DNA from: an uncultured Clostridia bacterium | GTDB taxonomy: Bacteria; Bacillota; Clostridia; Christensenellales; UBA1242 | Reading direction: 5' to 3' | Assembly: GCA_944383335.1 (NCBI GenBank) | Contig: CALWPD010000001.1 | Span: 1,901-65,900, forward strand | Length of the DNA stretch: 64,000 nt | Shown here: in pieces, positions 5,782 to 60,849 of the stretch | How the letters are laid out: every line of letters starts with the position of its first letter | Numbering within the stretch: position 1 is the first letter of the stretch | The notes under the pieces: model-generated | The model's input: only the letters and a program-made list of their open reading frames with translations | Told to the model about the DNA's origin: nothing | The model's database searches: none | Translations under genes and position numbers: made by a program

Positions 5782-6039
5782 ATGGTGAAAGAAAATATAT
5801 TAAGACTAGTAAATAGAAATGACCTAAGTATAACTGGTGTTGAAAAAGTAATCTCTTTTTCTCCAAATGAGGTCAATTTGCAAGCACTTGACTGTGAAAT
5901 GAAAATAATAGGAAGAGAACTCCAAACTGTTAAACTTGATGAAGAAAATGGCGACCTTGTAATAAGTGGAGTTATTGAAAGTATAAAATGGAGTGATAAA
6001 AAAGAAAAGCAAAGTTTGCTTAAAAGAATATTCAAATGA
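5782..6039 (+). CDS. yabP: sporulation protein YabP
   Basis: 85 aa. The pattern LVNRNDLSITGVEKVISFSPNEVNLQ...LVISGVIESIKW is typical of YabP. SD AGGAG lies upstream, and ATGA stop/start coupling links it to the next gene. Confidence 0.8.
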   Translation: MVKENILRLVNRNDLSITGVEKVISFSPNEVNLQALDCEMKIIGRELQTVKLDEENGDLVISGVIESIKWSDKKEKQSLLKRIFK

Positions 6040-6413
6040 TTCTTTTTGAAACTCTCTCTCAACCTTTAATATTATTTTTTGTTATTGTGTCTGGTTTTTT
6101 ATCTGGGCTTTTCTTTGATGTTGCATATATAATATCTTTTCTTTGTAATGATAACAAAATTGTCAAAAACTTATTAGAATTTTTTTCTACAGTGTGCACT
6201 TTTTTTGTACTGTTTTTAATCAATCAAAAATTTTTATATGGTCAGTTTAGATTATATGTAGTACTATTCTTTTTTCTATCTCTAATATTTGAACAACTTA
6301 GTCTTGGAAAACTTATTGCAAAAACTAGAAATTGGTGTTATCATATGTTTAAGAAATTTTCACAAAGGATAGTTAAATTATGCAAGAGAAGAAAAAATTC
6401 AAAACAACACTAA
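6036..6413 (+). CDS. yabQ: spore cortex biosynthesis protein YabQ-like membrane protein
   Basis: 125-aa hydrophobic protein with GFLSGLFFDVAYI, immediately after yabP as in Bacillus/Clostridia. Confidence 0.65.
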   Translation: MILFETLSQPLILFFVIVSGFLSGLFFDVAYIISFLCNDNKIVKNLLEFFSTVCTFFVLFLINQKFLYGQFRLYVVLFFFLSLIFEQLSLGKLIAKTRNWCYHMFKKFSQRIVKLCKRRKNSKQH

Positions 6414-6685
6414 TTATCATGTCTGTCGTGGCGTGTTGCTTTTTGCTTGTTGGAATAATTCAAACCTTTGTATTAAACTCTCAAAAAAGTACATTAAATG
6501 ACCTTGAAAACACAAATGCTGAACTTGGTTTAAAAGAAGAAGAACTTAAAGAAATCCACGACTACATGTGTCAAATTGAAGGCGAACATGATGAAAAAGA
6601 ATGTATCATTGACAATAACTACTTAGAAAAATATTGGGAATTAAACAATGGTTATGGTGAAGATGGTGATAAGATAGTCCAATAA
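6380..6685 (+). CDS. divIC: septum formation initiator (DivIC/FtsB-like)
   Basis: One N-terminal TM helix followed by a coiled coil (LNDLENTNAELGLKEEELKEI). Conserved yabP-yabQ-divIC gene order. Confidence 0.6.
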   Translation: MQEKKKFKTTLIIMSVVACCFLLVGIIQTFVLNSQKSTLNDLENTNAELGLKEEELKEIHDYMCQIEGEHDEKECIIDNNYLEKYWELNNGYGEDGDKIVQ

Positions 6686-17830: not shown

Positions 17831-17880
17831 ACATTCCTCCACTCTTGGTTATTGACATAAAATTTATATTTTAATCACGA

Positions 17881-18405
17881 TTAGTCATCATCTTCATCGT
17901 CAAAATCATCATCTTCGTCGTCGTCATCATCATAAAGGTCGTCATCATCTAAATCGTCATCATAATCGTCAGAACTTTCATCGTCATCATCTTCTCCATC
18001 TTCTTCATCATCTTCAAGTTCATCATCATCAAACATAATATCATCATCAAGACCGGCACCTAAAATATCATCGTCATCATCTTCTTTAACTGTAACACCA
18101 TCGCCAAGTTCTTCATCTTCACTTTCAAAATCATCATTTTCATCACGATTGACGTAATCTGACCAATCGTCTTTATCCTTATCTAAACTTTCAGGGTCAA
18201 TATTTCTTTCTTTCATACATTGTGGACACATAACCTCATCAGGTCCAATATAATTAGTCTTGCAAATTGGACAGAGTTCAAGATCAAGTTCATCATCTCC
18301 ACCACCAACTTGCATTTCCTTTTTGCACACACTGCAATATTTATCTTTTTTTAAACAATAATTAAGTTCACATCGTGGACATCTAATATACTCTTGTTTA
18401 GACAT
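17881..18405 (-). CDS. double zinc-ribbon protein with about 110-aa poly-Asp/Glu tail
   Basis: CPRCELNY...CSVCKKEM and CPICKTNY...CPQCM are two CxxC-x-CxxC ribbons. The C-terminal half is almost entirely D/E (DDDDLYDDDDDEDDDFDDEDDD). Confidence 0.6.
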   Translation of the reverse strand: MSKQEYIRCPRCELNYCLKKDKYCSVCKKEMQVGGGDDELDLELCPICKTNYIGPDEVMCPQCMKERNIDPESLDKDKDDWSDYVNRDENDDFESEDEELGDGVTVKEDDDDDILGAGLDDDIMFDDDELEDDEEDGEDDDDESSDDYDDDLDDDDLYDDDDDEDDDFDDEDDD

Positions 18406-18483: not shown

Positions 18484-19257
18484 TTATTTTTCAAGGCTTT
18501 GTTGGTTATTATATGTTACAACTCCATGTTTTGTTGCACGCATAAGTATATTATTTGACCTAAAATCTTTAATTTCATTGTAATCAACAAGATTTCCATC
18601 TACATCAAGATAGTACACCTTGCCGTTTTCATCCTTATATTGCTCAACTTGATTGGCATAAATTACATCATTTTGTGCTTGGACTAAAACATCATTTTGA
18701 TTTAACTCCTCGCCCATGACATAGCGATTTAATAGCCCAAAAATATCTTTACAATTAAAATCATTTAACAAATAATTAACAATATATTTCCTGTAATCTT
18801 TTTGTGTAAGTGCTCCAGATCTTTTGTGAACTGCGTCGACATTTAAAAGTCCTCTGTCAACATTCTCCAAGGTGATATCTGCTGAATATTTATATGCATC
18901 TACAATTTCTGAGTAGCGCACTGCACCACGTACACTATTTAAAAAAGTTGAGAAATATAGACAATATGCACACAACGTATAGGTATCAAAGCCATCGTAA
19001 GGATTTTGGCTAGATAAAATATTTAATAGATGATTAAATCTGTGAGGGTATTTGCCATTGCCATCATAAAGCTCATGAACAATTTCCGATTTTACAAGTC
19101 CCAGCCCTGAAGTGCCAATTATCCTAGATAAAAACCCTGAAATTTGTGAATTTTGGCGCATAATCACAAGGCGAGCAAGCAAACGAACCTTGTCGTCTTC
19201 CGTCATATTTTGCAGTTTTTTTATTGCTTGATGGGTTAAACCTTTATCCATATGCAT
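18484..19257 (-). CDS. hypothetical protein
   Basis: 257-aa ORF in the same orientation as its neighbours. No motif recognised. Confidence 0.45.
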   Translation of the reverse strand: MHMDKGLTHQAIKKLQNMTEDDKVRLLARLVIMRQNSQISGFLSRIIGTSGLGLVKSEIVHELYDGNGKYPHRFNHLLNILSSQNPYDGFDTYTLCAYCLYFSTFLNSVRGAVRYSEIVDAYKYSADITLENVDRGLLNVDAVHKRSGALTQKDYRKYIVNYLLNDFNCKDIFGLLNRYVMGEELNQNDVLVQAQNDVIYANQVEQYKDENGKVYYLDVDGNLVDYNEIKDFRSNNILMRATKHGVVTYNNQQSLEK

Positions 19258-19474: not shown

Positions 19475-21016
19475 CTAATTTTGACTATTTTTTTGATAAT
19501 ATAATGCAATGCGTGTATCTTCAGTTAAAACATCTTCGGTTATGCTTGGATTTTGCTTATAAATAAGTTCTGGCCGGATAAAAAGTTTTTTTGCTATATC
19601 CCAAATTTTTTCACCCACTTTGCCAAAATAAATCTCTATTGCACAATCTTTCTCTGGTAATTGCTCCGAGATTTCAATATCAGATATAACTGCTCCTTGC
19701 GTGGTTTTACATATATTTGAATGAACTAAAAGTACAGCATCAACATAAACATCTCTACCTTTTTTAACCATTACATCAACATCACAAACAGAAACTTCGG
19801 TATCAAACATAACATCACCCTCAATATCTGTTTGATAACTCACCACAAAAGGAATTTCAACATCGACAGAGTTTGGTCTTGACTCCTCATCATTAAAATA
19901 AATTAAATTGCTGGTTAATACGCCACTGAGATTATATGTACCATTGTCAATGTATTCATTTGTTATTATTGCTTTTGAATAATTTACCGCAAGCAATTTA
20001 TCTATTCGTGGCTCATCATCAGAAAGTACCAAACTACCTTCAATTTTTTTGTCAAACGAAATTGGTTCGCAAGAAATTGTGTTTTCATAACTCTGAGTTG
20101 TGCTATTTATAACATTATTTGTACTAAATAAGTCGCAAGGAACTGCTATTGTATCCATTGTATAAAGTGCCATAACAACATCAAGTGGTATTGTTATACT
20201 AAGTTTGACTTCTTCTCCATTATCGGAAACATTTGTTACAACTTCACAACTGTTGTCATCAATTACAACATCAGTTAAACTGCCCTTTTTTGCATATTCG
20301 CACTCAACTTCTTGCTTTATTTCGGTTTTGTTATAAACAGTTTTGATTTGTTGATCTTCTGTGTCAGTAACATATGTTATTTTACTAACAAGTGTAGCAC
20401 AAAGCGTAACAAAACCTTCGCTGGCTTCGGCACTTATTAAATGGACATCGCTTGTTGTGGAAATGACTTGCCGTACTGGTTCTTTGACGCTAACTTCGAT
20501 ATTTTCTATCCAATTACTTCGACAGGTTCCCGAAAGTGATTGATAAGTTATTTCTTCATTTTTTGTGCAAATATCTTCAGTTGTTTGGCATAAATATGGC
20601 ACCTCAACTTTGGAAAGTGTATAGACTTTTAAATTTACTTCATATTGCACCTGAGCAGTATTATTATTTAATGCTGTTACCTTGGACTCGACATTGCATA
20701 CTCTTGCCAAAACTTGTGAATTTGGCGTAATATCGCTATTTTGCACTTTAATCGAATATGGCGAGCAGTATGTGGCATTTCCAACTAGCCCTGACTCCGT
20801 AAGATAAACTATTGCCACAAGCGCATTTCCGCTGATATTTGCTTCACCCATAAGCGCCTCAGTTTGTGGCAAACCACTACAAACATTTACTGCGAGTATC
20901 TTTATAATACTTTCAGAACTGTCGATTTTTACAGAACACTCAAAAGATTGAGTAACATCATTTAATCTTGTCTTTTTTACTGAATAAAATTTTTCGTATG
21001 AATTATTGTTCGCCAT
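19475..21016 (-). CDS. DUF3794-repeat protein with C-terminal LysM domain (SipL/SpoVID-like spore morphogenesis candidate)
   Basis: The C-terminal IEIYFGKVGEKIWDIAKKLFIRPELIYKQNP...RIALY is LysM-like. The long beta-rich N-terminal region has a size (about 513 aa) and architecture resembling clostridial SipL. Start at ATG 21016 (SD GGAGGG). Confidence 0.55.
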   Translation of the reverse strand: MANNNSYEKFYSVKKTRLNDVTQSFECSVKIDSSESIIKILAVNVCSGLPQTEALMGEANISGNALVAIVYLTESGLVGNATYCSPYSIKVQNSDITPNSQVLARVCNVESKVTALNNNTAQVQYEVNLKVYTLSKVEVPYLCQTTEDICTKNEEITYQSLSGTCRSNWIENIEVSVKEPVRQVISTTSDVHLISAEASEGFVTLCATLVSKITYVTDTEDQQIKTVYNKTEIKQEVECEYAKKGSLTDVVIDDNSCEVVTNVSDNGEEVKLSITIPLDVVMALYTMDTIAVPCDLFSTNNVINSTTQSYENTISCEPISFDKKIEGSLVLSDDEPRIDKLLAVNYSKAIITNEYIDNGTYNLSGVLTSNLIYFNDEESRPNSVDVEIPFVVSYQTDIEGDVMFDTEVSVCDVDVMVKKGRDVYVDAVLLVHSNICKTTQGAVISDIEISEQLPEKDCAIEIYFGKVGEKIWDIAKKLFIRPELIYKQNPSITEDVLTEDTRIALYYQKNSQN

Positions 21017-21243: not shown

Positions 21244-22446
21244 TTATTGTTCAATTTTTGAAACTACACCGCTACCAACTGTTCTGCCGCCTTCACGAAT
21301 AGCAAAGCGAAGTCCTTCTTCAATAGCGATTGGAGTGATAAGTTCAATTTCCATTGTTACATTATCACCTGGCATAACCATTTCAACACCTTCTGGAAGT
21401 TTGATTGTACCAGTAACATCAGTTGTTCTAAAGTAGAACTGTGGACGATAACCATTGAAGAATGGAGTATGACGGCCACCTTCTTCTTTCTTCAAGACAT
21501 AAACTTGAGCACTGAATTTTGTATGAGGTTTGATTGAGCCTGGTTTTGCAAGAACTTGTCCTCTTTCGATTTCATCTCTTTGAATACCACGAAGAAGAAG
21601 TCCTACATTATCTCCTGCTCTTGCTTCGTCAAGAAGTTTTCTAAACATTTCGACACCTGTGATAACTGTTTGTTTACCACTGTCTTTCATACCAACGATT
21701 TCAACTGTATCATTGAGTTTAACTGTTCCTCTTTCAACTCTACCTGTTGCAACTGTACCACGACCTGTGATTGTGAATACATCTTCAACTGGCATCAAGA
21801 AAGGCTTGTCTGTTTCACGAACAGGATCTGGAATATATGAGTCGATAGTGTCAAGTAACTCTTGAATTGGTTTTAACCATTCACTATTAACATCTCCCGC
21901 TTCGCACGCTTCACATGCTTTAAGAGCGGAACCTTTGATGATAGGAGTTGTGTCTCCTGGGAAATCATATGAAGTTAAAAGTTCACGAATTTCCATTTCA
22001 ACAAGGTCTGCAAGTTCTGGGTCTGCCTGATCCATCTTATTCATGAAAACAACAATGTATGGAACACCAACCTGACGAGCAAGCAAAATATGTTCTCTTG
22101 TTTGAGGCATAGGACCATCTGCTGCTGAAACAACAAGGATTGCTCCATCCATCTGTGCGGCACCTGTAATCATATTCTTAACATAGTCTGCGTGTCCTGG
22201 GCAGTCTACGTGTGCATAGTGCCTTTTTTCTGTTTGGTATTCAACATGCGCGGTGTTGATTGTAATACCTCTTGCTTTTTCTTCTGGTGCCTTGTCGATG
22301 TCTTCATATTTCATCTTTTCAGCAAGGCCTTTAAGTGCGCAATATTGGCATATAGCAGAAGTAAGAGTTGTTTTACCATGGTCAACGTGTCCAATGGTAC
22401 CAATGTTTACATGGACTTTACTTCTATCGAATTTTTCCTTAGCCAT
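21244..22446 (-). CDS. tuf: elongation factor Tu
   Basis: [18 protein letters not shown] and NKMD G-motifs. Full-length 400 aa and unmistakable. Confidence 0.98.
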
Positions 22447-22482
22447 TTTAAAATAATCTCCTTTTTTAATTTAGTCTTAATG

Positions 22483-22510
22483 ATTTTATCATAATTTTTG
22501 TTTTTTGCAA
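22483..22510 (-). promoter_or_regulatory. candidate sigma-A promoter for tuf (extended -10)
   Basis: The minus strand reads TTGCAA-16 nt-TAAAAT, with the last spacer bases forming an extended -10 (TGATAAAAT), about 35 nt upstream of the tuf SD. Confidence 0.5.
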
Positions 22511-22568
22511 AACAATTTTAATAAATATTTTTTATTTGAAAGTCGCTATTTAAACGACTTTAAGAAAT

Positions 22569-22655
22569 CTCATCATCCTAAGCACTGCTTCCCTGACGGA
22601 TAGACGAAGAGTCTCATCTGCTTTCTTACCAAGACTGACCAAAAGCAAGCAAGAC
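22569..22655 (+). repeat. mosaic repeat module M1, copy A
   Basis: 87 nt (ctcatcatcctaagcactgcttccctgacggatagacgaag...aaaagcaagcaagac). By manual alignment it has 77/87 identity to 36349..36435. Confidence 0.85.
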
Positions 22656-22669
22656 TATTCACACAGCAC

Positions 22670-22872
22670 GCAGGAATTTAGTTACCTAAATGACTGTCTA
22701 GCCTGGCATAGCAGTAAACAAAGTATTGCTATGTTCGTACTGTGTCTTTTCAAAGAACACAATTTTTGAGAATTTTGCAAAGAAAGACGAGGCTCGGCGG
22801 GGACTCCCACGCAGGAGTGTACAAAATCGTACATGACTGTGTGGGGGTTGCCCGGCAGAAACAAAGTATTTC
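22670..22872 (+). repeat. 203-bp direct repeat, copy 1 (contains two hairpin cores)
   Basis: Identical by eye over 203 bp to 22951..23153 (offset 281 bp). Contains core copies 22667..22697 and 22806..22845. Confidence 0.9.
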
Positions 22873-22950
22873 TTAATTTGTACTTTATTTATTTTGTTTT
22901 TGCAAAATTAACTAAAAGCAAGCAAGACGAGGCTCGCTATGTCAGGTTAG

Positions 22951-23153
22951 GCAGGAATTTAGTTACCTAAATGACTGTCTAGCCTGGCATAGCAGTAAAC
23001 AAAGTATTGCTATGTTCGTACTGTGTCTTTTCAAAGAACACAATTTTTGAGAATTTTGCAAAGAAAGACGAGGCTCGGCGGGGACTCCCACGCAGGAGTG
23101 TACAAAATCGTACATGACTGTGTGGGGGTTGCCCGGCAGAAACAAAGTATTTC
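22951..23153 (+). repeat. 203-bp direct repeat, copy 2
   Basis: See copy 1. It ends 19 nt before the fusA stop codon (23172). Contains core copies 22948..22978 and 23087..23126. Confidence 0.9.
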
Positions 23154-23171
23154 GAAGCAAAAACTCAAAAA

Positions 23172-25250
23172 TTAGCTTTTTTTGCGTTCGCCGACAATCT
23201 TCTCAGTTATAGACTTAGGCACTTCCTGATATTTGAGTGGTTCCATAACGAATGTACCACGTCCTTGGGTTTGAGAACGAAGGTCAGTCGCATAACCAAA
23301 CATCTCAGCAAGAGGAACTTCGGCACGAACACGTTGATATCCTGGAATTGAATCATTTCCAAGAAGTATACCACGTCGTGCGGTAAGATTGCCCATTACA
23401 GTACCAAGATATTCATCTGGAACATCCACTTCAACTTTCATAATTGGTTCCAAAAGTACTGGGTCTGCCTTTGCGGCACCTTCTTTAAATGCAAGCGAAC
23501 CAGCAATTTTGAACGCCATTTCACTGGAGTCGACATCGTGGTACGAACCATCAAATACTGTCGCTCTAAAGTCTATAGTCTCATAGCCTGCAATTACACC
23601 GTTCATTCTTGCTTCATCAATACCTTTGTTGACTGGTTGAATAAATTCTTTTGGAATAGAACCGCCAACTGTTTTATCAACAAATTCATATCCCGAACCC
23701 GGTTCAAGTGGTTCAAACTTAACCCAGCAGTGTCCGTATTGTCCTTTACCACCACTTTGACGAACAAATTTACCTTCTGCCTCGACTGTTTTACGAATTG
23801 TCTCACGATAAGCAACTTGTGGTTTACCAACATTAGCCTCAACTTTGAACTCACGAAGAAGTCTATCCACAATAATTTCAAGGTGAAGTTCACCCATACC
23901 AGAAATAAGGGTTTGTCCCGTTTCTTGATCCGTTTGAACTCTAAATGATGGATCTTCTCTCGCAAGTTTTCCGAGTGCTATCGCCATTTTTTCTTGCATA
24001 TCTTTGGTTTTTGGCTCAATAGCAAGTTGGATAACAGGTTCTGGAAATTTCATACTTTCAAGCTGAATTGGATGGTCTTCATCGCAAAGTGTATGTCCTG
24101 TAATTGTATCTTTAAGCCCAACGATTGCAGCTATATCACCTGCTTTTACCTCACTTATTTCAGTACGATTATTAGCATGCATACGAATAAGTCTTCCAAC
24201 ACGCTCAGTCTTTCCTGTATTTGCATTATATACGTATGAGCCTGCTTTAAGTGTCCCGCTGTATACACGGAAGAATGTGAGTGTTCCCACATATGGGTCG
24301 GTGGCAATTTTGAATGCAAGTCCTGCAAGTGGAGCATTGTAGTCTGGATGGCGATATTCTTCTTCACCAGTTTCTGGGTTTATGCCCTTAATAGACTCAA
24401 TGTCTGTAGGTGCTGGCAAATAATCAACCATTGCATCAAGTAAGTTTTGAACACCTTTATTTTTATATGATGAACCGCAAAGCATAGGAGTAACTTGTTT
24501 TGAAATTGTGGCTTTTCTAATTGCTTGTTTAAGTTCGTTGATAGTAATTTCCTCTCCACCGAAATACTTCTCTAAGAGTGCATCATCTGTTTCAACGATT
24601 GATTCAATGAGTGCATCATGGCGTTTTTGTGCCTCTTCTTTATATTCTTCTGGAATTTCAACTTCATCAACAATCTTTCCAAGGTCATCTTCTGGGATAT
24701 AAGCCTTAAGTGTCAAAAGGTCTATAATACCTTTAAATGTATCGGCCATTCCGATAGGCATTTGAAGTGGCAATGGTTTTGTGTGAAGTCTATCCCTAAC
24801 TGATTCAACACATTTGTCGAAGTATGCATCGTCTCTGTCCATTTTGTTTACAAAGATTATTACAGGGACTTTGCATTCATTTGCTTGACGCCAAACTGTT
24901 TCAGTTTGTGGTTGAACTTTATCACGTGCACTGAGAACTAAAACTGCGCCATCAAGTACTTTTAATGAACGCAAAACTTCGATAGTGAAGTCAACGTGTC
25001 CTGGTGTGTCGATAATGTTTATTTTATGGTTTTTCCAATGGCAAGTTGTGCAGGCAGATGTAATAGTTATACCACGTTCTTGCTCCTGCTCCATCCAGTC
25101 CATTGTAGCAGCACCATCGTGAACTTCACCAATTTTGTGGTTGATACCAGTATAGAAAAGAATTCTCTCTGTTGTTGTCGTTTTGCCGGCATCAATGTGT
25201 GCCATAATACCGACATTGCGAGTTAAAGATAAGTCATCATTCTCTGGCAT
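23172..25250 (-). CDS. fusA: elongation factor G
   Basis: [23 protein letters not shown] and NKMDR motifs. 692 aa, full length. Confidence 0.98.
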
Positions 25251-25458: not shown

Positions 25459-25520
25459 TTCTTCGCTTCGCTCAGAATGACAATACATGGTTAAGTTTCT
25501 TCGCTTCGCTCAGAATGACA
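25459..25520 (+). repeat. two copies of the 24-nt motif ttcttcgcttcgctcagaatgaca (period 38)
   Basis: Copies at 25459..25482 and 25497..25520. The same ctcagaatgac word recurs at 36660..36733, and its reverse complement (gtcatcctgag) occurs at 36351. Confidence 0.85.
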
Positions 25521-25564
25521 GAAAAAGAACGAAGTATTTCGAATCAAAAAATCAAAAAAATTTT

Positions 25565-25678
25565 AAAACGCAAAATTGTGTGGCAGATGCTAGGCTCGGC
25601 GGGGACTTCCACGCAGGAGTTTAGTTAACCTAAATGACTGTGTGGAAGTTGCCCGACAGTAAACGACGCAGATGCCCA
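25565..25678 (+). repeat. 114-bp direct repeat, copy 1 (hairpin core 25605..25649)
   Basis: One mismatch to 25703..25816 (offset 138 bp). Confidence 0.9.
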
Positions 25679-25702
25679 CTCTGTTCTTTTGTACAAAGCC
25701 GT

Positions 25703-25831
25703 AAAACGCAAAATTGTGTGGCAGATACTAGGCTCGGCGGGGACTTCCACGCAGGAGTTTAGTTAACCTAAATGACTGTGTGGAAGTTGCCCGACAGTAA
25801 ACGACGCAGATGCCCAAAATTTTGCGTTTTA
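25703..25831 (+). repeat. 114-bp direct repeat, copy 2, closed by 15-bp terminal inverted repeat
   Basis: gtaaaacgcaaaatt (25701..25715) is the exact reverse complement of aattttgcgttttac (25817..25831). The right arm overlaps the rpsG stop codon. Core at 25743..25787. Confidence 0.9.
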
Positions 25832-26302
25832 CCAGCGGTAGTGAGCAAACGCCTTGTTAGCCTCTGCCATCCTGTGCATCTCATCTCTACGCTTGATTGC
25901 ACTGCCTTGGTTGTTGTAGGCATCCATAAGTTCACCTGCAACTTTTGCTTCCATTGTGCGCTCACTATTACGTTTTCTAGCAAATTGAACAAGCCAACGG
26001 ATAGCAAGGGTTTGACGGCGTTCTGGACGAATCTCCATAGGTACTTGGTATGTTGCACCACCAACACGCCTACCTTTTGTTTCAAGAACAGGTTTTACAT
26101 TTTCAACTGCTTGAGTGAAAACATCAATCGGATCACTGCCTGTTTTGTCCTTTATAATGTCAAAAGCGCCATATACTATGTGCTGAGCGATACCCTTTTT
26201 CCCATCATACATAACTTGGTTGATAAACTTTGAAACAAGTTTGTTGTGGAATTTTGGATCTGGCAAAACATCTCTTTTTGGCACTCCACTTCTTCTTGGC
26301 AT
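25829..26302 (-). CDS. rpsG: 30S ribosomal protein S7
   Basis: [18 protein letters not shown]... is a canonical S7. 157 aa. Confidence 0.98.
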
Positions 26303-27001: not shown

Positions 27002-27796
27002 TTATTTTTCCATACCGCCGTCTAATGATACTTTATGACTATTCTTTTTCTCCAATCCAAACTTTTTGTCAAATTGTCTTTTTATCTCACCATTAAGATT
27101 TAATGAAAATAAATTTATGACAGTATTTCTTTTTTCTGGTGATTCTATGGAATTTATATGCTCTTCTAAAATCTCAACACACTTTGACGAAAACTGTTCT
27201 GAATCAAATACAGATGAGTGAATATAAAGAATTGTTTTTGGAGATTGTTTTAAAGTTTTTAATAGTTCCCACTCTTTTGTGTTAAATAGATATTGTGTAT
27301 TTACATCAAGATAATATGTATGATAGTCAGTTTGGTTATAATATGAGCGAAGTTTTAGCATACCCATATCTTCTGCACATTCACCTTCTTCCACAAGTGA
27401 AAACAAATATTTACCACCTTTTACGTTATAAGTATGCCCGTTGTCGTCAACATAAAAAGGGAATGCTTTGCAATTTTCTTTATAAAAAATCTTACCTTTA
27501 TTTTCAAAAAATTTATAGTCTTCTCCGTCAAGAACTTCAACACAAGCACTTCCATCACTTTGAACTTTAACTATTTTGTCTGCACTGCAAAAAATATTGT
27601 TTTTCACAAGCTGAATTGGTTTTAAAAAAATTACAGTATATGATGTTCTTTTATCGACCACAGTGTTGCCATTTGGAAGCTTTAAGGCGTAACCACTGAA
27701 ATTGCCAATCATGGTGTCGCCATGAATAACATCAATCAAATCTTTACTGGTTAAATATTTTGCATTTGCCATTCTTACAATCTTTATTGAATCCAT
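27002..27796 (-). CDS. hypothetical cytoplasmic protein
   Basis: 264-aa ORF with no TM segments and no motif recognised. Confidence 0.45.
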   Translation of the reverse strand: MDSIKIVRMANAKYLTSKDLIDVIHGDTMIGNFSGYALKLPNGNTVVDKRTSYTVIFLKPIQLVKNNIFCSADKIVKVQSDGSACVEVLDGEDYKFFENKGKIFYKENCKAFPFYVDDNGHTYNVKGGKYLFSLVEEGECAEDMGMLKLRSYYNQTDYHTYYLDVNTQYLFNTKEWELLKTLKQSPKTILYIHSSVFDSEQFSSKCVEILEEHINSIESPEKRNTVINLFSLNLNGEIKRQFDKKFGLEKKNSHKVSLDGGMEK

Positions 27797-36344: not shown

Positions 36345-36348
36345 TTCC

Positions 36349-36435
36349 TTGTCATCCTGAGAACTGCACCCCTGACGGATAGACGAAGTATCTCATCTGC
36401 TTTCTTACCCAGACTGACAAAAAGCAAGCAAGACG
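36349..36435 (+). repeat. mosaic repeat module M1, copy C
   Basis: 77/87 identity to 22569..22655. Begins with gtcatcctgag, the inverse of the ctcagaatgac word at the other end of this locus. Confidence 0.85.
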
Positions 36436-36519
36436 AGGCTCGGCGTCGTCGAGACTGTCGCTTTGGGCTTCAATTTGCTATTCGCAAATTTTTGCTTTTC
36501 GCTCCGTTTCTCCTCTCCC

Positions 36520-36552
36520 CAAAAAGTTTCCGTAGGTACTTTTTGGGGGCCC
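36520..36552 (+). repeat. perfect 11-bp-stem hairpin ccccaaaaagt/actttttgggg
   Basis: The exact inverted repeat is separated by 10 nt. The right arm (actttttgggg) also occurs alone at 25435..25446. Confidence 0.8.
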
Positions 36553-36625
36553 CGACACCCACGCAGGAGTTTAGTCCACTAAATGACTGTGTGGCTTGGC
36601 ACGCTAGAAACAAAGTATTACGACG
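36537..36625 (+). repeat. hairpin-core repeat module M2, copy C (core 36558..36594)
   Basis: cccacgcaggagtttagtccactaaatgactgtgtgg followed by gaaacaaagtatt, as in locus A. Confidence 0.85.
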
Positions 36626-36659
36626 CTTTTTGTCTGTCTGGGAGATTTTTCGCTAACGC

Positions 36660-36751
36660 TCAGAATGCTAATAAAACTCAGAATGCTAATAAAACTCAGA
36701 ATGACTAATAAAACTCAGAATGACTAATAAAACTCATCATAACTAAAAAAG
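36660..36751 (+). repeat. 18-19-bp tandem repeat ctcagaatg(a)ctaataaaa x4 plus one degenerate unit
   Basis: Units at 36660, 36678, 36696 and 36715, with a degenerate unit at 36734. A partial extra copy (aatgactaataaaa) lies at 36790. Confidence 0.85.
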
Positions 36752-36816: not shown

Positions 36817-36848
36817 ATAAAAAAACTAATGCTAAAGTCAAGCATTAG
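36817..36848 (-). terminator. intrinsic terminator after the 853-aa lipoprotein gene
   Basis: The minus strand reads ctaatgct-tgacttt-agcattag followed by TTTTTTT. Confidence 0.7.
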
Positions 36849-36860
36849 TTTTTGTATTTA

Positions 36861-39422
36861 TTAAGCAACTTCTCTTGGGTAGAAACGCAACACTGCACCT
36901 ATTCCAAACAATGTGTAGATATTGATATAATCTCCTACAGGTATATCTTTGTATGTGGCAATTTCTGTATTTAAAATTGCTACTTGCTCCTGTATTGATT
37001 TATTATTATAATCACTTAATTCTTCAAATATCTGTGCTTGTTGCATACCCACAGGTATATATGTCATTAAATTCATACTAGGCATTTGTGACTGAACTAG
37101 TGTAGCGACATTCCCAAAACTTGTTACTGTTTCTTGAAGTTTTTGAGTTTTTTCATCAAGAGTTAGTTCTGCAAACTCTTGCAAATCTATTTTTAATGGA
37201 GTCAACATTGGAGGTATAACTGTTTCATATTGTGGATATGAGTTTGAAACTTCTGCAATGATTCCATCAATCACGCCGTTTAATACTTGTGCCATAACAG
37301 ACAATTTGAACATACTTCCGTCTTTTATGTTTTCAGTAGCACCTTTCATAAATGCACCAGTTGCATTATCTTCAACATAGTTAGCACTATTTGTTCTTGC
37401 CAAATTTGCGACATTTGAACTTAAATCAAGACCATAGTTTGAAGATTTGTCTGCTACGGTGTAGTCACCAAGTCCATAATATTTTTCATAATCGTCATAT
37501 GTATCAAAAATATTTAATGTGCTTGCGATGTTTGATGCTGCCAAACCTTGTTCTCCATTTTTTAACACAGCAACTAAATTGAGTTGTTGATATGATTGAC
37601 CATCTTCCACTAGCGTACTTGGAATGATAGTTTTTCCTGTATCAGGAAGTCCTGCCTCGCCATTGAAAATGGTGTTAAGTAAAGGAATTTGTGCAACCAA
37701 CGCATCAGCACCATATATTACAAACCAAGGCGACTGAGCAGTTATCACAGATTCCATAACTGTGTCAACAAGATTTATATGACTTGGATATCCAGTTTCA
37801 GGATTGTTGTCCTGTTGCAAACAATGGTCTGCTATTATTGCAGGGCCACCTGCTTGTTTATATTCACAATCCAAGAACAATACATTTTTTGAACCCCAAC
37901 CATAGAACGCACATTGATAGAAATTATAACCTTTGCTCTTTTCTATAACATAATTTCCAATAAATTCATTTTCAACACCGTCATTAACTTCAAGTCCTAA
38001 TTGAGTAAAGTAACCAATATAGAAGTTGTTGATTAAGGTGTTGTATGCATTGAAATTTACTCTGGAGTTTTTCATAAGCAATATACCACCAGAATTGACT
38101 GGATCGTTGTTTAATTCAATATTTCCAGTAAAGGCAACATTTTTCCAATTAACTTGTGTCTCTGCTTTAATTGAATTTTCACTTGCCCAAGTGTAAAATA
38201 CACAAAGGTGTGCTGTCATATATTGAGCGTCAACTGTATCACTGTCAACTTTAACGGCTAAATCTGGATTACTTCCATCATTTTCTACAACCATTTTTGG
38301 AAATTGACTCAAATCAACAGTGAAGTAATTCCCTATAAAATTAAATTCATCACCTGAATAAATTCTTCTATTGTATAGTCCAAGACTTTGGTTGTCAACA
38401 GGAGTACCAAGCAATTCTTCTGTTGTGTAATCTTTTGCTAAATCGTAGTTTGTTGTAGTTTCGGTCCAGAACATATCTTTTCCATCGGCAGTTTTTTGTC
38501 TTACATCATCTTTTGTTATTACGATGTTGTCCTGAAGAATTATACCTTTTATATTTTTTACATCATCATATGTAAGTCCAAGCTCTTCCCAAATTTGACT
38601 ATATGAGTTATCTTCATTGTGGAACACAGAAAGTTGTTTTGCCGTGTATACATTGTATGCATCAACAACGCAAAGTTCTGCACTGAATGAAACATCTTCC
38701 AAACTTGCAGAAGCATCAATATTGCTTGGGCAAACATCAACTTTAAATGTATGTCCCACTGCGTTTTCAGTGAAGTCAAGTTCTGTATTTTCAGTGTCTA
38801 TGCTGACATAGTAGGCGATATCATCATTTTGAAGTTGTTGATATTCGCCGTCTTGCAAAAGACTAACTGTAATATTTGTCCTAACCTTTTCAATATCTCC
38901 AACAAAATTGTCAAGCCCATCAAAACCACCTGCAACTATTCTGAAGTTGAAAGCATTGTCATCACCAACATACAAAGGTTGTTCTTTATCTTTATATTCA
39001 ATATTTTCACTAGCATCATTTATTTTGTTTGTTGAATAATCTGCTAAAAGTTTGCTGGTCAACGACGAAACAGACAAAATATCTGCTTCGGTTGCAACAA
39101 CTCTTATCGTTACAAAAATTTCTTTTGATTGGTCATTGTCATCGGTATATTTGATTGATAGACTTTTATCTCCTGTTGTTTGTGTGTCTATTGTACCAAA
39201 ACTTAAGTTTTCTGCGGAAACTTCTTTTTGTGTATCGTCTTCATAAGTTACATACACAACAACATTTGATGTGTCAAGTGTTTTTCCTTTTTCAATGACA
39301 GTTTCCAAGGTGCCATTTTTTAATGTCATTGTGCTGATTTTGTTGCCACCACAAGCGACAAGAGCGACGGCAGACAGCATAAAAACACTAAATAGCATAA
39401 GTATTTTTGTTATTTTTTTCAT
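36861..39422 (-). CDS. large surface lipoprotein (N-terminal Ig-like domain, probable beta-helix body)
   Basis: Lipobox LVAC|GG. An Ig-like module (VVVYVTYEDDTQKEVSAENLSFGTIDTQTTGDKSLSIKY) and then about 700 aa rich in N/G/Y/D. Last gene of the ABC cluster. Confidence 0.6.
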   Translation of the reverse strand: MKKITKILMLFSVFMLSAVALVACGGNKISTMTLKNGTLETVIEKGKTLDTSNVVVYVTYEDDTQKEVSAENLSFGTIDTQTTGDKSLSIKYTDDNDQSKEIFVTIRVVATEADILSVSSLTSKLLADYSTNKINDASENIEYKDKEQPLYVGDDNAFNFRIVAGGFDGLDNFVGDIEKVRTNITVSLLQDGEYQQLQNDDIAYYVSIDTENTELDFTENAVGHTFKVDVCPSNIDASASLEDVSFSAELCVVDAYNVYTAKQLSVFHNEDNSYSQIWEELGLTYDDVKNIKGIILQDNIVITKDDVRQKTADGKDMFWTETTTNYDLAKDYTTEELLGTPVDNQSLGLYNRRIYSGDEFNFIGNYFTVDLSQFPKMVVENDGSNPDLAVKVDSDTVDAQYMTAHLCVFYTWASENSIKAETQVNWKNVAFTGNIELNNDPVNSGGILLMKNSRVNFNAYNTLINNFYIGYFTQLGLEVNDGVENEFIGNYVIEKSKGYNFYQCAFYGWGSKNVLFLDCEYKQAGGPAIIADHCLQQDNNPETGYPSHINLVDTVMESVITAQSPWFVIYGADALVAQIPLLNTIFNGEAGLPDTGKTIIPSTLVEDGQSYQQLNLVAVLKNGEQGLAASNIASTLNIFDTYDDYEKYYGLGDYTVADKSSNYGLDLSSNVANLARTNSANYVEDNATGAFMKGATENIKDGSMFKLSVMAQVLNGVIDGIIAEVSNSYPQYETVIPPMLTPLKIDLQEFAELTLDEKTQKLQETVTSFGNVATLVQSQMPSMNLMTYIPVGMQQAQIFEELSDYNNKSIQEQVAILNTEIATYKDIPVGDYINIYTLFGIGAVLRFYPREVA

Positions 39423-59883: not shown

Positions 59884-60849
59884 TTAGACTAAATAATAAT
59901 TATTTTTTAATGCAACTGCGCTGGTTTTTTGTTCTCCATCAAGCGAAGATATATAATCATCGAAAGTATTTTTTGAAAGATTATTTATTATATCGTCGAA
60001 ATTAAGAATCAAAAAATTCGAAAATAATGCATCATAAAAATCACTATTTTTAATATAAGTTGAATCATTTAAAATAATGGAATTATTAAAGTCTGTCAAA
60101 TGACCTATCGCCGTACTCAATGTATTTTGTTCAATATCTAAGGTTGAATAGTTTATGCAAATAGCATTTGCCCAGTAATATAGCGATTTGATATTATACT
60201 TTGTTAGTGGGTTTATGGTAAAGGTGTCAATTAGATAGTTTGTTGTTATATCCGAAATAAGTTTATAATATTTAGTGAGATTGCTAGAAAAATTAATATA
60301 ATATTTGTAATAATTTTGCACATATCTAAATATCGCATTATCATCAGGATATTTTTGAATTGCACTTTGTGTTAAATATTGATTAATGTAAGTTTTACAA
60401 TCCGCGCTTGATTTTAAAATAATTTCTTTCATTTCACTTATTTCACGCTGAAGAGAAAGCATATTACCATCTTTGTCCTGCGTAAAAAGCAAATTTTCAA
60501 GCAAAAAATTATTTTGACTTAACACTGTCTGTATGACCATGTTTAAATCTTTAAATGTCTGTTTTACAGTTTGATAATTTTCGCTGCTAACATTTGTTAA
60601 ATCTTGCAAAGCATTATAAACATTAAAGTTTTGGTTTATTACATAGTTGAAATCATCATTATGAACTAACGAATATGTGTCGTTATATGGCGCATCTAAG
60701 TCAACTCTTGGTTTAAAAATAAAATAACAACCTACTGCAATGGCAACAATAAGCAATATGGAAATTGCTATAACAATAAATTTTTTATTAAAAAATCCAG
60801 ATTTAGCCACTCTAGAAACTCCTTGGGTGTAGTTTAACATAAATTCCAA
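59884..60849 (-). CDS. hypothetical membrane-anchored protein (helical, N/Y-rich)
   Basis: One TM helix (FIVIAISILLIVAIAVGCYFIF). Lies in tandem with the preceding lipoprotein gene (12-nt gap). Confidence 0.5.
   Translation of the reverse strand: MEFMLNYTQGVSRVAKSGFFNKKFIVIAISILLIVAIAVGCYFIFKPRVDLDAPYNDTYSLVHNDDFNYVINQNFNVYNALQDLTNVSSENYQTVKQTFKDLNMVIQTVLSQNNFLLENLLFTQDKDGNMLSLQREISEMKEIILKSSADCKTYINQYLTQSAIQKYPDDNAIFRYVQNYYKYYINFSSNLTKYYKLISDITTNYLIDTFTINPLTKYNIKSLYYWANAICINYSTLDIEQNTLSTAIGHLTDFNNSIILNDSTYIKNSDFYDALFSNFLILNFDDIINNLSKNTFDDYISSLDGEQKTSAVALKNNYYLV

Follow-up and report, generated by a model that had tools for sequence, protein, structure and literature searches.

A structured, multicopy element of 120–140 nt at the 3′ ends of translation genes in uncultured Clostridia

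What is the hairpin that recurs between housekeeping genes of an uncultured Clostridia bacterium, always on the strand opposite to those genes? The question arose from a stretch of 64,000 nt of contig CALWPD010000001.1 (assembly GCA_944383335.1; hereafter the window), in which an earlier note, made from the letters alone, had pointed out a conserved hairpin of 40 nt in seven copies at three loci, all on the plus strand. It had offered two explanations, an independent or antisense RNA and a DNA hairpin of the REP or IS200/IS605 type. We found that the 40-nt hairpin is real but is merely the apex of an element of ~120–140 nt, which folds into a long rod, occurs in about 20 related genomes of uncultured, gut-type Clostridia and is placed with one polarity at gene 3′ ends. 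We read this element as a structured repeat that is non-autonomous, confined to one lineage and, in its general kind, akin to REP/REPIN, ERIC, EFAR and bcr1, a reading to which we give about an even chance of being right.

The 8-mer ACGCAGGA occurs at six plus-strand sites (22668, 22809, 23090, 25611, 25749 and 36561) against 0.44 expected from shuffles, and none of 100 shuffles reached seven; its single minus-strand match, at 60476–60483, stands in unrelated sequence. The seventh copy, at 22948–22989, reads AGGCAGGA...CTGTCTAG, with the pair beside the wobble switched from C-G to G-C. A covariance model built from relatives (model R1, see below) returned exactly these seven units, all on the plus strand, with 48–102 bits, and the reverse strand scored 12–20 bits at the same sites. 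The count, the loci and the strand given in the earlier note therefore hold. Its four aligned variants, re-read against the sequence, are accurate as printed: the 5-bp stem carries two compensatory pairs (tgtac/gtaca vs tttag/ctaaa), the closing g·t becomes a-t in one variant, the loops of the window copies measure 4–6 nt and the two GA dinucleotides face each other. The units are also richer in G+C (0.40–0.53, against about 0.30–0.34 for the window), as had been observed. Overlooked were the C-G/G-C swap of the seventh copy, the true size of the element and its strict placement at gene 3′ ends.

Relatives aligned together with their flanks show the hairpin as the tip of a rod of ~120–140 nt. 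From the outside in, this rod consists of P1, a small internal loop, P1b, an asymmetric internal loop, P2, P2b, a tandem GA, P3 and the terminal loop. P1 is an AT-rich outer helix of ~15–18 bp that is wholly different between subfamilies, and P1b pairs GAAAGAC with GUAUUUC and includes a conserved G·A. The asymmetric internal loop is conserved (5′ GAGGCUC / 3′ (C)AGAAAC(A/G)AAG; AGAAACAAAG). P2 is a variable stem of ~11 bp, P2b (CCACGCAG / CUGUGUGG) holds a near-invariant G·U, and P3 is G-UUUAG / CUAAA-U or a variant of it, closed by a loop of 3–7 nt across relatives. At the apex the tandem GA/GA is invariant and forms a symmetric 2x2 internal loop between G-C and G·U pairs, with no bulge; two G·T(U) positions are near-invariant (79/84 and 76/84 rows). 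The conserved single-stranded blocks are GACGAGGCTCG and CAGAAACAAAGTATT. Taken as a whole, the interior is conserved, and P1 and P2 vary freely yet remain complementary. The fold energy lies between -50 and -87 kcal/mol in most full units. In the window the features of the element are as follows.

22640–22738, plus strand: unit 1, degenerate; covariance-model match of 49.4 bits.
22762–22881, plus strand: unit 2; model match 22773–22881, 91.1 bits.
22806–22845, plus strand: apical hairpin, the tip of unit 2; P2b CCCACGCAG / CTGTGTGGG, tandem GA, P3 GTGTAC/GTACAT, 6-nt loop.
22913–23019, plus strand: unit 3, of a separate subfamily (AAGCAAGCAAGACGAGGCTCGC...); model match of 102.2 bits.
23043–23172, plus strand: unit 4, a complete 130-nt rod; model match 23054–23162, 91.3 bits.
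25525–25548, plus strand: solo 3′ tail of a lost unit, GAACGAAGTATTTCGAA against the 3′ consensus CAGAAACGAAGTATTTCG.
25566–25683, plus strand: unit 5, first copy of the 138-bp duplication, with the P1 3′ arm truncated; 81.3 bits.
25701–25832, plus strand: unit 6, a complete 132-nt rod; model match 25713–25821, 79.8 bits.
36410–36641, plus strand: unit 7; model match 36527–36630, 47.7 bits, and a weak match at 36419–36504.

Four of the seven copies derive from two very recent tandem duplications, one with a period of 281 bp (22670–22872 and 22951–23153, 100% identical) and one with a period of 138 bp (25564–25816, 99% identical), and two are degenerate or interrupted (22640–22738 and ~36410–36641). 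Unit 1 has kept its apex (core 22668–22697) but neither the 5′ strand of the loop (GAGGCTC) nor the 5′ arm of P2. Unit 2 is a duplicate of unit 4, to which it is 100% identical. It retains the apex, P2, the two strands of the internal loop, P1b and the 5′ arm of P1, and it lacks the P1 3′ arm because the next unit comes straight after. The region 22780–22865 folds with -44.1 kcal/mol on the plus strand (z -6.6) and -27.7 kcal/mol on the minus strand. Unit 3 bears the apex variant TTAGGCAG/CTGTCTAG, in which the G·T is kept. The P1 arms of unit 4 are ATTTTTGAGAATTTTGC / GCAAAAACTCAAAAAT, and this unit ends on the first base of the fusA stop codon (23172–23174, minus strand). Unit 6 folds with -64.2 kcal/mol; its P1 arms are GTAAAACGC... 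/ ...GCGTTTTAC, and the rpsG stop codon (25829–25831, minus strand) lies inside the 3′ arm. In unit 7 the P1 arms (CAGACTGACAAAAAGC / GCTTTTTGTCTGTCTG), P1b and the 5′ loop strand are intact and the apex is found at 36558–36593, while the P2 5′ arm is split at ~36443–36545 by a foreign repeat of ~100 nt, called module B below.

To find relatives, we scanned one genome per species for CCACGCAGGA-N13-20-TGACTGTGTGG and examined 8–15 kb around each match. All relatives were found via the conserved apex, and the sample represents the apex-carrying members of the family. The scan gave 39 loci in 20 species-level metagenome-assembled genomes (MAGs), labelled as uncultured Clostridia, Christensenella sp., Thermoanaerobacterales or Lachnospiraceae. 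There were several loci per genome, about one per 20–85 kb of sequence examined. Together with a few metagenome contigs, some 20 related genomes yielded ~100 units in total, which are the further copies that the earlier note had expected. Model R1, built from a seed of these relatives and able to annotate the element in other genomes, gave 87 matches in the window and the 39 loci, two of them being reverse-strand echoes, and 17 matches in 17 metagenome loci, three of which had none.

The pairing was examined in a seed alignment of 37 sequences with a hand-drawn structure of 31 pairs. Changes on both sides occurred in 24 of the 31 pairs (211 cells), and paired cells made up 90.3%, compared to 34–47% after the 3′ partners had been slid by 1–3 columns. 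Not one of 500 shuffles reached any of the observed covariation measures. The P2b wobble is kept amid compensated neighbours (CCACGCAG/CTGTGTGG, CTCCGCAG/CTGTGGAG, CTAGGCAG/CTGTCTAG and CAAAGCAG/CTGTTTTG). P1 is too variable to align, and its complementarity was tested separately by the duplex energy of the arms: arms of the same unit gave a mean of -17.6 kcal/mol, against -6.6 kcal/mol for arms of different subfamilies (p ~7e-22), and -12 kcal/mol was reached by 75% of the former and 9% of the latter. These results bear out the earlier claim of a conserved and structured element in several copies, whose compensatory changes are genuine.

We found no known family that would explain the element. 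Rfam (Rfam 15) gave no match at gathering thresholds over the whole window, and at E up to 10 over 22440–23180 it gave chance-level matches only, the best being RnaG, which reached 25 of the 153 bits required and lay on the opposite strand, displaced from the unit. Similar sequences were absent from viral contigs, PLSDB plasmids and INPHARED phages, and blastn gave no match either in 5,426 genomes of E. coli, a carrier of ERIC and REP. When the literature was searched for an equivalent, general papers on REP/REPIN and stem-loop repeats were all that came up. The Rfam scans agree with the earlier note, which could not match the hairpin to a known RNA family. The earlier note had also named outcomes that would speak against it, namely a database match, a lack of further copies, a lack of covariation, or copies equally frequent in both orientations with no strand-specific transcript, and none of these was what we found.

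Which strand folds was judged in two ways. On average, the plus strand folds ~10 kcal/mol better per unit. Wobble pairs were counted in the minimum-energy folds of both strands for 45 distinct units: the apex has 91 on the plus strand and 4 on the minus strand, P1 has 42 and 36, and P2 has 52 and 85, respectively. The wobble asymmetry is a property of the conserved apex only, and in the variable stems transitions are tolerated to the same degree on both strands, or somewhat better on the gene-sense one. The earlier note had taken the plus strand as the functional one because its G·T pairs would be C·A mismatches on the complement; with the asymmetry limited to the apex, this conclusion does not extend to the whole element, and we rejected wobble pairs as a guide to the functional strand except for the conserved apex. 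Sequence selection clearly acts on the apex. TnpA_REP binds and cleaves the REP strand that has a conserved bulge of non-pairing bases, and activity is lost once pairing is made perfect (PMC8266576). Since the active REP strand is the bulged one, better pairing cannot name the active strand.

The position of the element relative to genes proved to be strongly constrained. The model matches were grouped into 72 arrays, of which 70 could be evaluated on the 3′ side. Fifty of these 70 end 3–23 nt from a convergent 3′ end, as measured from the end of the model and thus within P1; the convergent neighbours are 46 open reading frames (ORFs) and four tRNA-Leu genes. Several of the other 20 arrays adjoin pseudo-tRNA-Leu copies or tRNA fragments. 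The adjoining ORFs encode S7 (in many species), EF-G, EF-Tu, L1, L20, S9, S18, GlnRS, LysRS, AsnRS, DnaN and a few others. The arrays run head-to-tail with a single fixed polarity, and orientation is non-random across all arrays with model hits; in the window, too, the neighbouring genes are all on the minus strand and the seven copies all on the plus strand, as first noticed. This polarity is given relative to the adjoining gene and, in loci of 8 kb, may equally reflect the direction of replication. The site behind rpsG is occupied in every genome sampled there, down to 77% S7 identity. Some units lie upstream of genes or beside genes unrelated to translation: a GPH symporter, an ABC-transporter-like ORF (named from its C-terminal sequence) and a 196-aa ORF without an NCBIfam family. 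The flanking genes of the window units include rpsL-rpsG-fusA-tuf, of which three are listed here.

21244–22446, minus strand: tuf (EF-Tu); NCBIfam EF-Tu models, 731–742 bits.
23172–25250, minus strand: fusA (EF-G); NCBIfam TIGR00484, 1116 bits; stop codon abutted by unit 4.
25829–26302, minus strand: rpsG (S7); NCBIfam TIGR01029, 229 bits; stop codon inside P1 of unit 6.

Followed in gene direction, the gene end comes first, then the reverse-complemented element in 1–4 units and, where visible, a normal small terminator. At two loci, L001 and L038, this appears as tRNA-Leu-CCA / AAAAA-CCACC...GGTGG-TTTTT / AGAGACCGAAAGGGCTTTTTT, and at L019, an empty site, one tRNA-Leu runs directly into its terminator. 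Standing between the gene end and the terminator, the element is inside the transcription unit of its neighbour and must be co-transcribed with it. In the window, tuf lies downstream of the four-unit array in gene direction and has a promoter-like site of its own at 22511–22483 in the promoter scan. On the plus strand, a consensus scan found no promoter-like site ahead of the window units; by eye, the AT-rich upstream flanks contain many -10-like hexamers at no fixed distance. Nor does a terminator follow the units on this strand in the window, where they run into the convergent gene end. The terminator scan gave no site spanning a whole unit on either strand, and its only site within a unit is a small minus-strand hairpin inside unit 3 (22938–22917). 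Some P1 arms are pairs of an A-run and a T-run, which would put a U-tract after the rod in gene direction (e.g. L025 and L001).

The polarity of P1 seems to be linked to context, as judged by eye from a small sample. Units at the end of a transcription unit have an A-rich 5′ arm and hence a terminator-like U-tract in gene direction (e.g. L001, L013, L018, L024 and L025), and in units of the str operon this polarity is reversed or mixed (e.g. window 23043–23172, L009, and L022 at 511). A further hairpin in the window, at 36821–36853, is symmetric with 13 bp between A and T runs and scores as a terminator on both strands; located directly after an 853-aa ORF (36861–39422), it is probably the bidirectional terminator of that gene.

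Orthologous sites reveal that units are gained and lost. The fusA-tuf spacer is empty and 116 nt long in L004 and L005; where occupied, it holds one unit plus fragments (L022, L023 and L033), two units (L039), three (L009) or four (window). Behind rpsG, close relatives with 97–99% S7 identity carry different P1 subfamilies, and the truncated 5′ arm of an older unit often remains on the distal side. The P1 subfamily AAAACGCAAAATTGTG.GG is found behind rpsG, asnS and the o519 homologue, and the recurrence of one subfamily behind different genes means that P1 is part of the repeated unit. The alternative, in which the element entered the loop of a pre-existing host terminator and P1 is the stem of that terminator, was rejected in view of the same P1 behind different genes and different P1 behind the same gene. 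P2 modules are common to units with different P1, both within the window and between related genomes, which indicates mosaic exchange, and chimeric units with non-complementary arms (L009 at 6626, L039 at 7857 and L022 at 3010) show recombination across the conserved core. The element can also alter proteins: in L022 (6280–6450) it has replaced the last 3–4 codons and the stop of a homologue of a 519-aa SipL/SPOCS-domain protein (Pfam), which ends in ...YYQKTQK* there, in ...YYQKNSQN* in the window (19475–19520) and in ...YYQKNYK* in L023 (7020–7080). Behind rpsR (S18), L024 holds four full units at 5898–6503 and a truncated one just upstream of 5898. In two units of this array, P3 is separated from the 3′ GA by an identical 75-nt palindrome, a further small element nested within the unit.

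These observations lead us to favour the structured repeat, and its behaviour may be pictured as follows. The hairpin would be the conserved recognition module of the repeat, whose copies would accumulate head-to-tail and in one polarity at the 3′ boundary of housekeeping genes, mostly translation genes and tRNA-Leu, ahead of the terminator. The element would then ride in the host transcript as a 3′ trailer or an intercistronic spacer. Arrays would grow, shrink and be reshuffled by tandem duplication, by recombination across the conserved core and by nested insertion. The irregular apex, together with the internal loop, would be what a trans-acting protein encoded elsewhere recognises in the folded single-stranded DNA or RNA, much as TnpA_REP does with REP hairpins, and this recognition would underlie the spread or maintenance of the element. 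Why the element prefers 3′ boundaries and translation genes has several possible answers: it may target abundant RNA 3′ ends or DNA under heavy transcription, it may survive only at sites where an insertion does no harm yet is expressed, or it may spread easily between species by homologous recombination through the very conserved flanking genes.

It should be underlined that a number of results weigh against a mobile repeat. No mobilising enzyme was found: a crude motif scan for RAYT/Y1 HUH proteins (H-x-H...Y-x3-[NQ]) in 606 ORF segments from ~530 kb around the elements gave none, and Pfam detected no transposase and no reverse transcriptase in ten neighbouring window genes. A target-site duplication is not definable, as filled and empty sites (tRNA-Leu, fusA-tuf spacer, o519 end) display no clear direct repeat and have their boundaries in A/T runs. 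Variable termini around a conserved interior are the reverse of transposase-bound terminal repeats, and each genome seems to carry tens of copies instead of hundreds. The occupancy of the rpsG site is equally well explained by retention for a host function. Finally, what maintains arm complementarity could be the way in which the element is copied, for instance by template switching at the hairpin, and not selection, so that covariation alone is no proof of a selected fold.

Another reading, which we consider unlikely, is a cis-acting RNA of the host. The element would then act in the gene-sense transcript as a processing, stability or termination-tuning signal, or be set free as a stable trailer RNA to which a specific protein binds, with the reverse complement of the plus-strand model as trailer or spacer and the translation apparatus as its regulon. 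Such a role would agree with the constant location inside the transcription unit, with neighbours strongly biased to translation genes and with occupancy of the rpsG site across the whole sampled clade. The P2 wobble pairs are commoner on the gene-sense strand (85 vs 52), and the inner ~90 nt of two units fold well in sense, with -27.7 and -30.7 kcal/mol; by eye, a few operon-end units have a U-rich distal arm in sense, and str-operon units are without one. However, the sense apex has A·C mismatches at two positions, and where its complement has the tandem G·A it has a row of mismatched pyrimidines (a ~3x3 loop); it also folds worse than that complement. Degenerate, chimeric, truncated and duplicated units, empty sites and replaced codons look like selfish turnover, and the units upstream of genes or beside non-translation genes do not suit a translation regulon.

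We see a small chance that the family represents something not described before, namely either a colonisation route by which a promoter-less element inserts in one polarity at the 3′ boundary of the most transcribed genes, or an RNA regulon. The boundary would be the encoded CCA end of tRNA-Leu or the stop codon of genes for ribosomal proteins, elongation factors and aminoacyl-tRNA synthetases. In one version, the element may be moved through an RNA, cDNA or single-strand intermediate by some enzyme; the tRNA-CCA junctions and the pseudo-tRNA-Leu copies beside the element would fit such a template-switching, SINE-like route. In the other version, the copies may have been domesticated, either as RNAs derived from trailers or as a regulon of gene 3′ ends that serves the translation apparatus.

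An independent or antisense family of small RNA genes transcribed from the plus strand, the first option of the earlier note, we regard as improbable. The apex is typical of RNA, with its tandem sheared-type G·A and invariant G·U, and the better fold of the plus strand, the strong covariation and G+C-rich units in an AT-rich genome all point the same way. Yet with neither a promoter-like site nor a terminator on that strand in the window, the RNA would run head-on against the strongest transcription units of the cell; moreover, inner units of arrays are short of one P1 arm, and the wobble asymmetry does not extend beyond the apex. A DNA architectural site without mobility, either a cruciform or hairpin for supercoil management or a signal for replication or recombination, is very improbable: E. 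coli BIMEs are reported to bind gyrase and other proteins, the element is placed just downstream of highly transcribed genes and wobble-type mismatches are about equal on both strands of the variable stems, as would be the case if both hairpins of a cruciform counted or if neither strand did in particular, but fixed polarity, asymmetric unpaired nucleotides and a strand-specific apex are not needed for a cruciform, positive and not negative supercoils build up ahead of RNA polymerase and would disfavour extrusion at these positions, and turnover is high with decayed copies.

Other repeats occur close to the units. Module B is a repeat family of ~100–125 nt with the hairpin CCCCAAAAAGT...ACTTTTTGGGG, present in the window at ~36443–36545 and in L019, L020, L025 (3901–4017 and 4441–4560), L011 and L017. 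Elsewhere than in the window it lies beside pseudo-tRNA-Leu copies, in which the 3′ half is duplicated and the 5′ part aberrant, and is bounded by inverted copies of tRNA-Leu sequence; it resembles a remnant of a small tRNA-targeting integrative element. Module A is an 83-nt repeat with 90% identity between its window copies, 22573–22655 and 36352–36434, which are situated just gene-upstream of two sites, the region of the tuf promoter and the start of the GPH symporter. At its 3′ end, module A overlaps with a hairpin unit, namely with P1b and the 5′ arm of P1, and its minus strand has a 14-codon ORF (MRLFVYPSGKQCLG / MRYFVYPSGVQFSG) with non-synonymous differences. An exact 15-mer of module A was not found in the 56 loci examined. 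In addition, the window contains a 19-nt tandem repeat, CTCAGAATGACTAATAAAA, in 4.2 copies (98%) at 36659–36736, and a related repeat, TTCGCTTCGCTCAGAATGACA, twice at 25462–25522; the word CTCAGRATGAC, common to both, is also found on the other strand at ~36345–36360. A long imperfect TCA/TCATC repeat at 17874–18137 lies inside a 174-aa minus-strand ORF (17881–18405) without a Pfam family and would encode an acidic tract rich in Asp and Glu. No Pfam match was obtained for the minus-strand ORFs 27002–27796 (264 aa), 36861–39422 (853 aa) and 18484–19257 (257 aa), and the 264-aa and 853-aa ORFs had no NCBIfam match either.

If the repeat reading is true, poorly known uncultured Clostridia harbour a well-defined structured repeat family with unusual traits: its interior is conserved and its termini are free, it is placed at gene 3′ ends with strict polarity, and it is strongly biased to translation genes and tRNA-Leu. 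The family would be a test case for how promoter-less selfish elements pick 'safe and loud' sites, and for which protein reads a hairpin with tandem GA and G·U. In practical terms, the repeats lengthen spacers within the str operon, overlap stop codons, can rewrite C-termini and will mislead the prediction of terminators, small RNAs and gene ends in the MAGs that carry them.

Several known structures were considered and rejected. An L7Ae-type kink-turn has a three-nucleotide bulge ahead of its tandem sheared G·A pairs, and such a bulge is absent from the symmetric 2x2 loop of the tandem GA. A retron msr-msd has a reverse transcriptase gene next to it and a1/a2 repeats with a branching G; it was discarded given the tandem units between housekeeping genes, and the window neighbours include no reverse transcriptase. 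Domain V of group II introns and the cores of hammerhead and hairpin ribozymes were considered from the sequence, and the Rfam scans gave no match to them; the same applies to CsrA-type GGA sponges and type III antitoxin repeats, of which the catalogued families had no Rfam match. As to coding potential, the ATG in ...AAATGACTGTGTGG opens no conserved frame in the few units inspected by eye, because P2 arms differ in both length and sequence and the frame meets a stop only a few codons on.

Among mobile systems, IS200/IS605 enzymes use the lagging-strand template, and co-directional genes would place the gene-sense strand of the element there. The Y1 HUH enzyme acts on single-stranded DNA and recognises imperfect hairpins with unpaired or mismatched bases in a strand-specific manner (PMC8266576). 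IS200/IS605 elements and the miniature PATEs derived from them have one short subterminal hairpin on the left and one on the right, and their target is a fixed word of four or five nucleotides, whereas our element is one continuous rod without a target word, and no tnpA or tnpB ORFs were found by Pfam among the ten window neighbours or by the crude motif scan of the loci. Integron attC sites recombine as a folded bottom strand with flipped-out bases, as summarised in PMC8266576. They too are imperfect palindromes right after an ORF, in one orientation, variable in sequence and conserved in structure, with the better-defined fold on the strand opposite to the coding strand. We nevertheless rejected an attC site: the AT-rich P1 stem bases lack the core boxes R″ (RYYYAAC) and R′ (GTTRRRY), and the neighbours are essential, syntenic housekeeping genes instead of cassettes, with tandem units that have no ORFs between them. 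No integrase was seen. Miniature inverted-repeat transposable elements differ in that their conserved sequence is terminal; here it is internal, and the P1 inverted repeats differ wholly between subfamilies.

REP sequences were compared as well; they belong with a single-copy RAYT (Y1 HUH) gene, which as a rule has REPs on its flanks. REPs of E. coli are recognised as folded single-stranded DNA and need an AA-GC bulge for activity (PMC8266576), and the reviews on REP and BIME to which that paper refers name roles in genome structuring. REPINs are long hairpins of ~70–110 nt, predicted to fold in single-stranded DNA or mRNA, and REP/REPIN sequences occur in hundreds of copies, essentially at random in extragenic space (PMC3116915). 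With REP, BIME and REPIN our element shares multicopy extragenic imperfect palindromes, tandem or mosaic arrays and no transposase inside the element. The in-stem irregularity, here the tandem GA and G·T, could likewise give strand discrimination, although this is a resemblance only. It differs in being a single rod of 120–140 nt instead of a 20–60-nt palindrome or two inverted REPs, in having no conserved GTAG head, with the variable P2 arm 5′ of the conserved hairpin, in conserving the apex and internal loop, in numbering tens of copies and not hundreds, and in its one polarity at gene 3′ ends in place of random extragenic spread.

ERIC/IRU, Enterococcus EFAR, Bacillus cereus bcr1, pneumococcal BOX and RUP and the Neisseria Correia elements are small families of stem-loop repeats: imperfect palindromes of ~100–170 bp in transcribed intergenic DNA, often near stop codons. 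They form long stem-loops in host transcripts, are restricted to lineages, occur in both orientations and have conserved termini, and it is debated how far they reflect selfish spread and how far effects on host RNA. Our element resembles them as an imperfect palindrome in transcribed intergenic DNA near stop codons and in its restriction to a lineage; it differs in having no sequence similarity to them, variable termini around a conserved interior and a strict polarity to the upstream gene. The family is absent from every library or collection searched, and in kind it is a small structured intergenic repeat.

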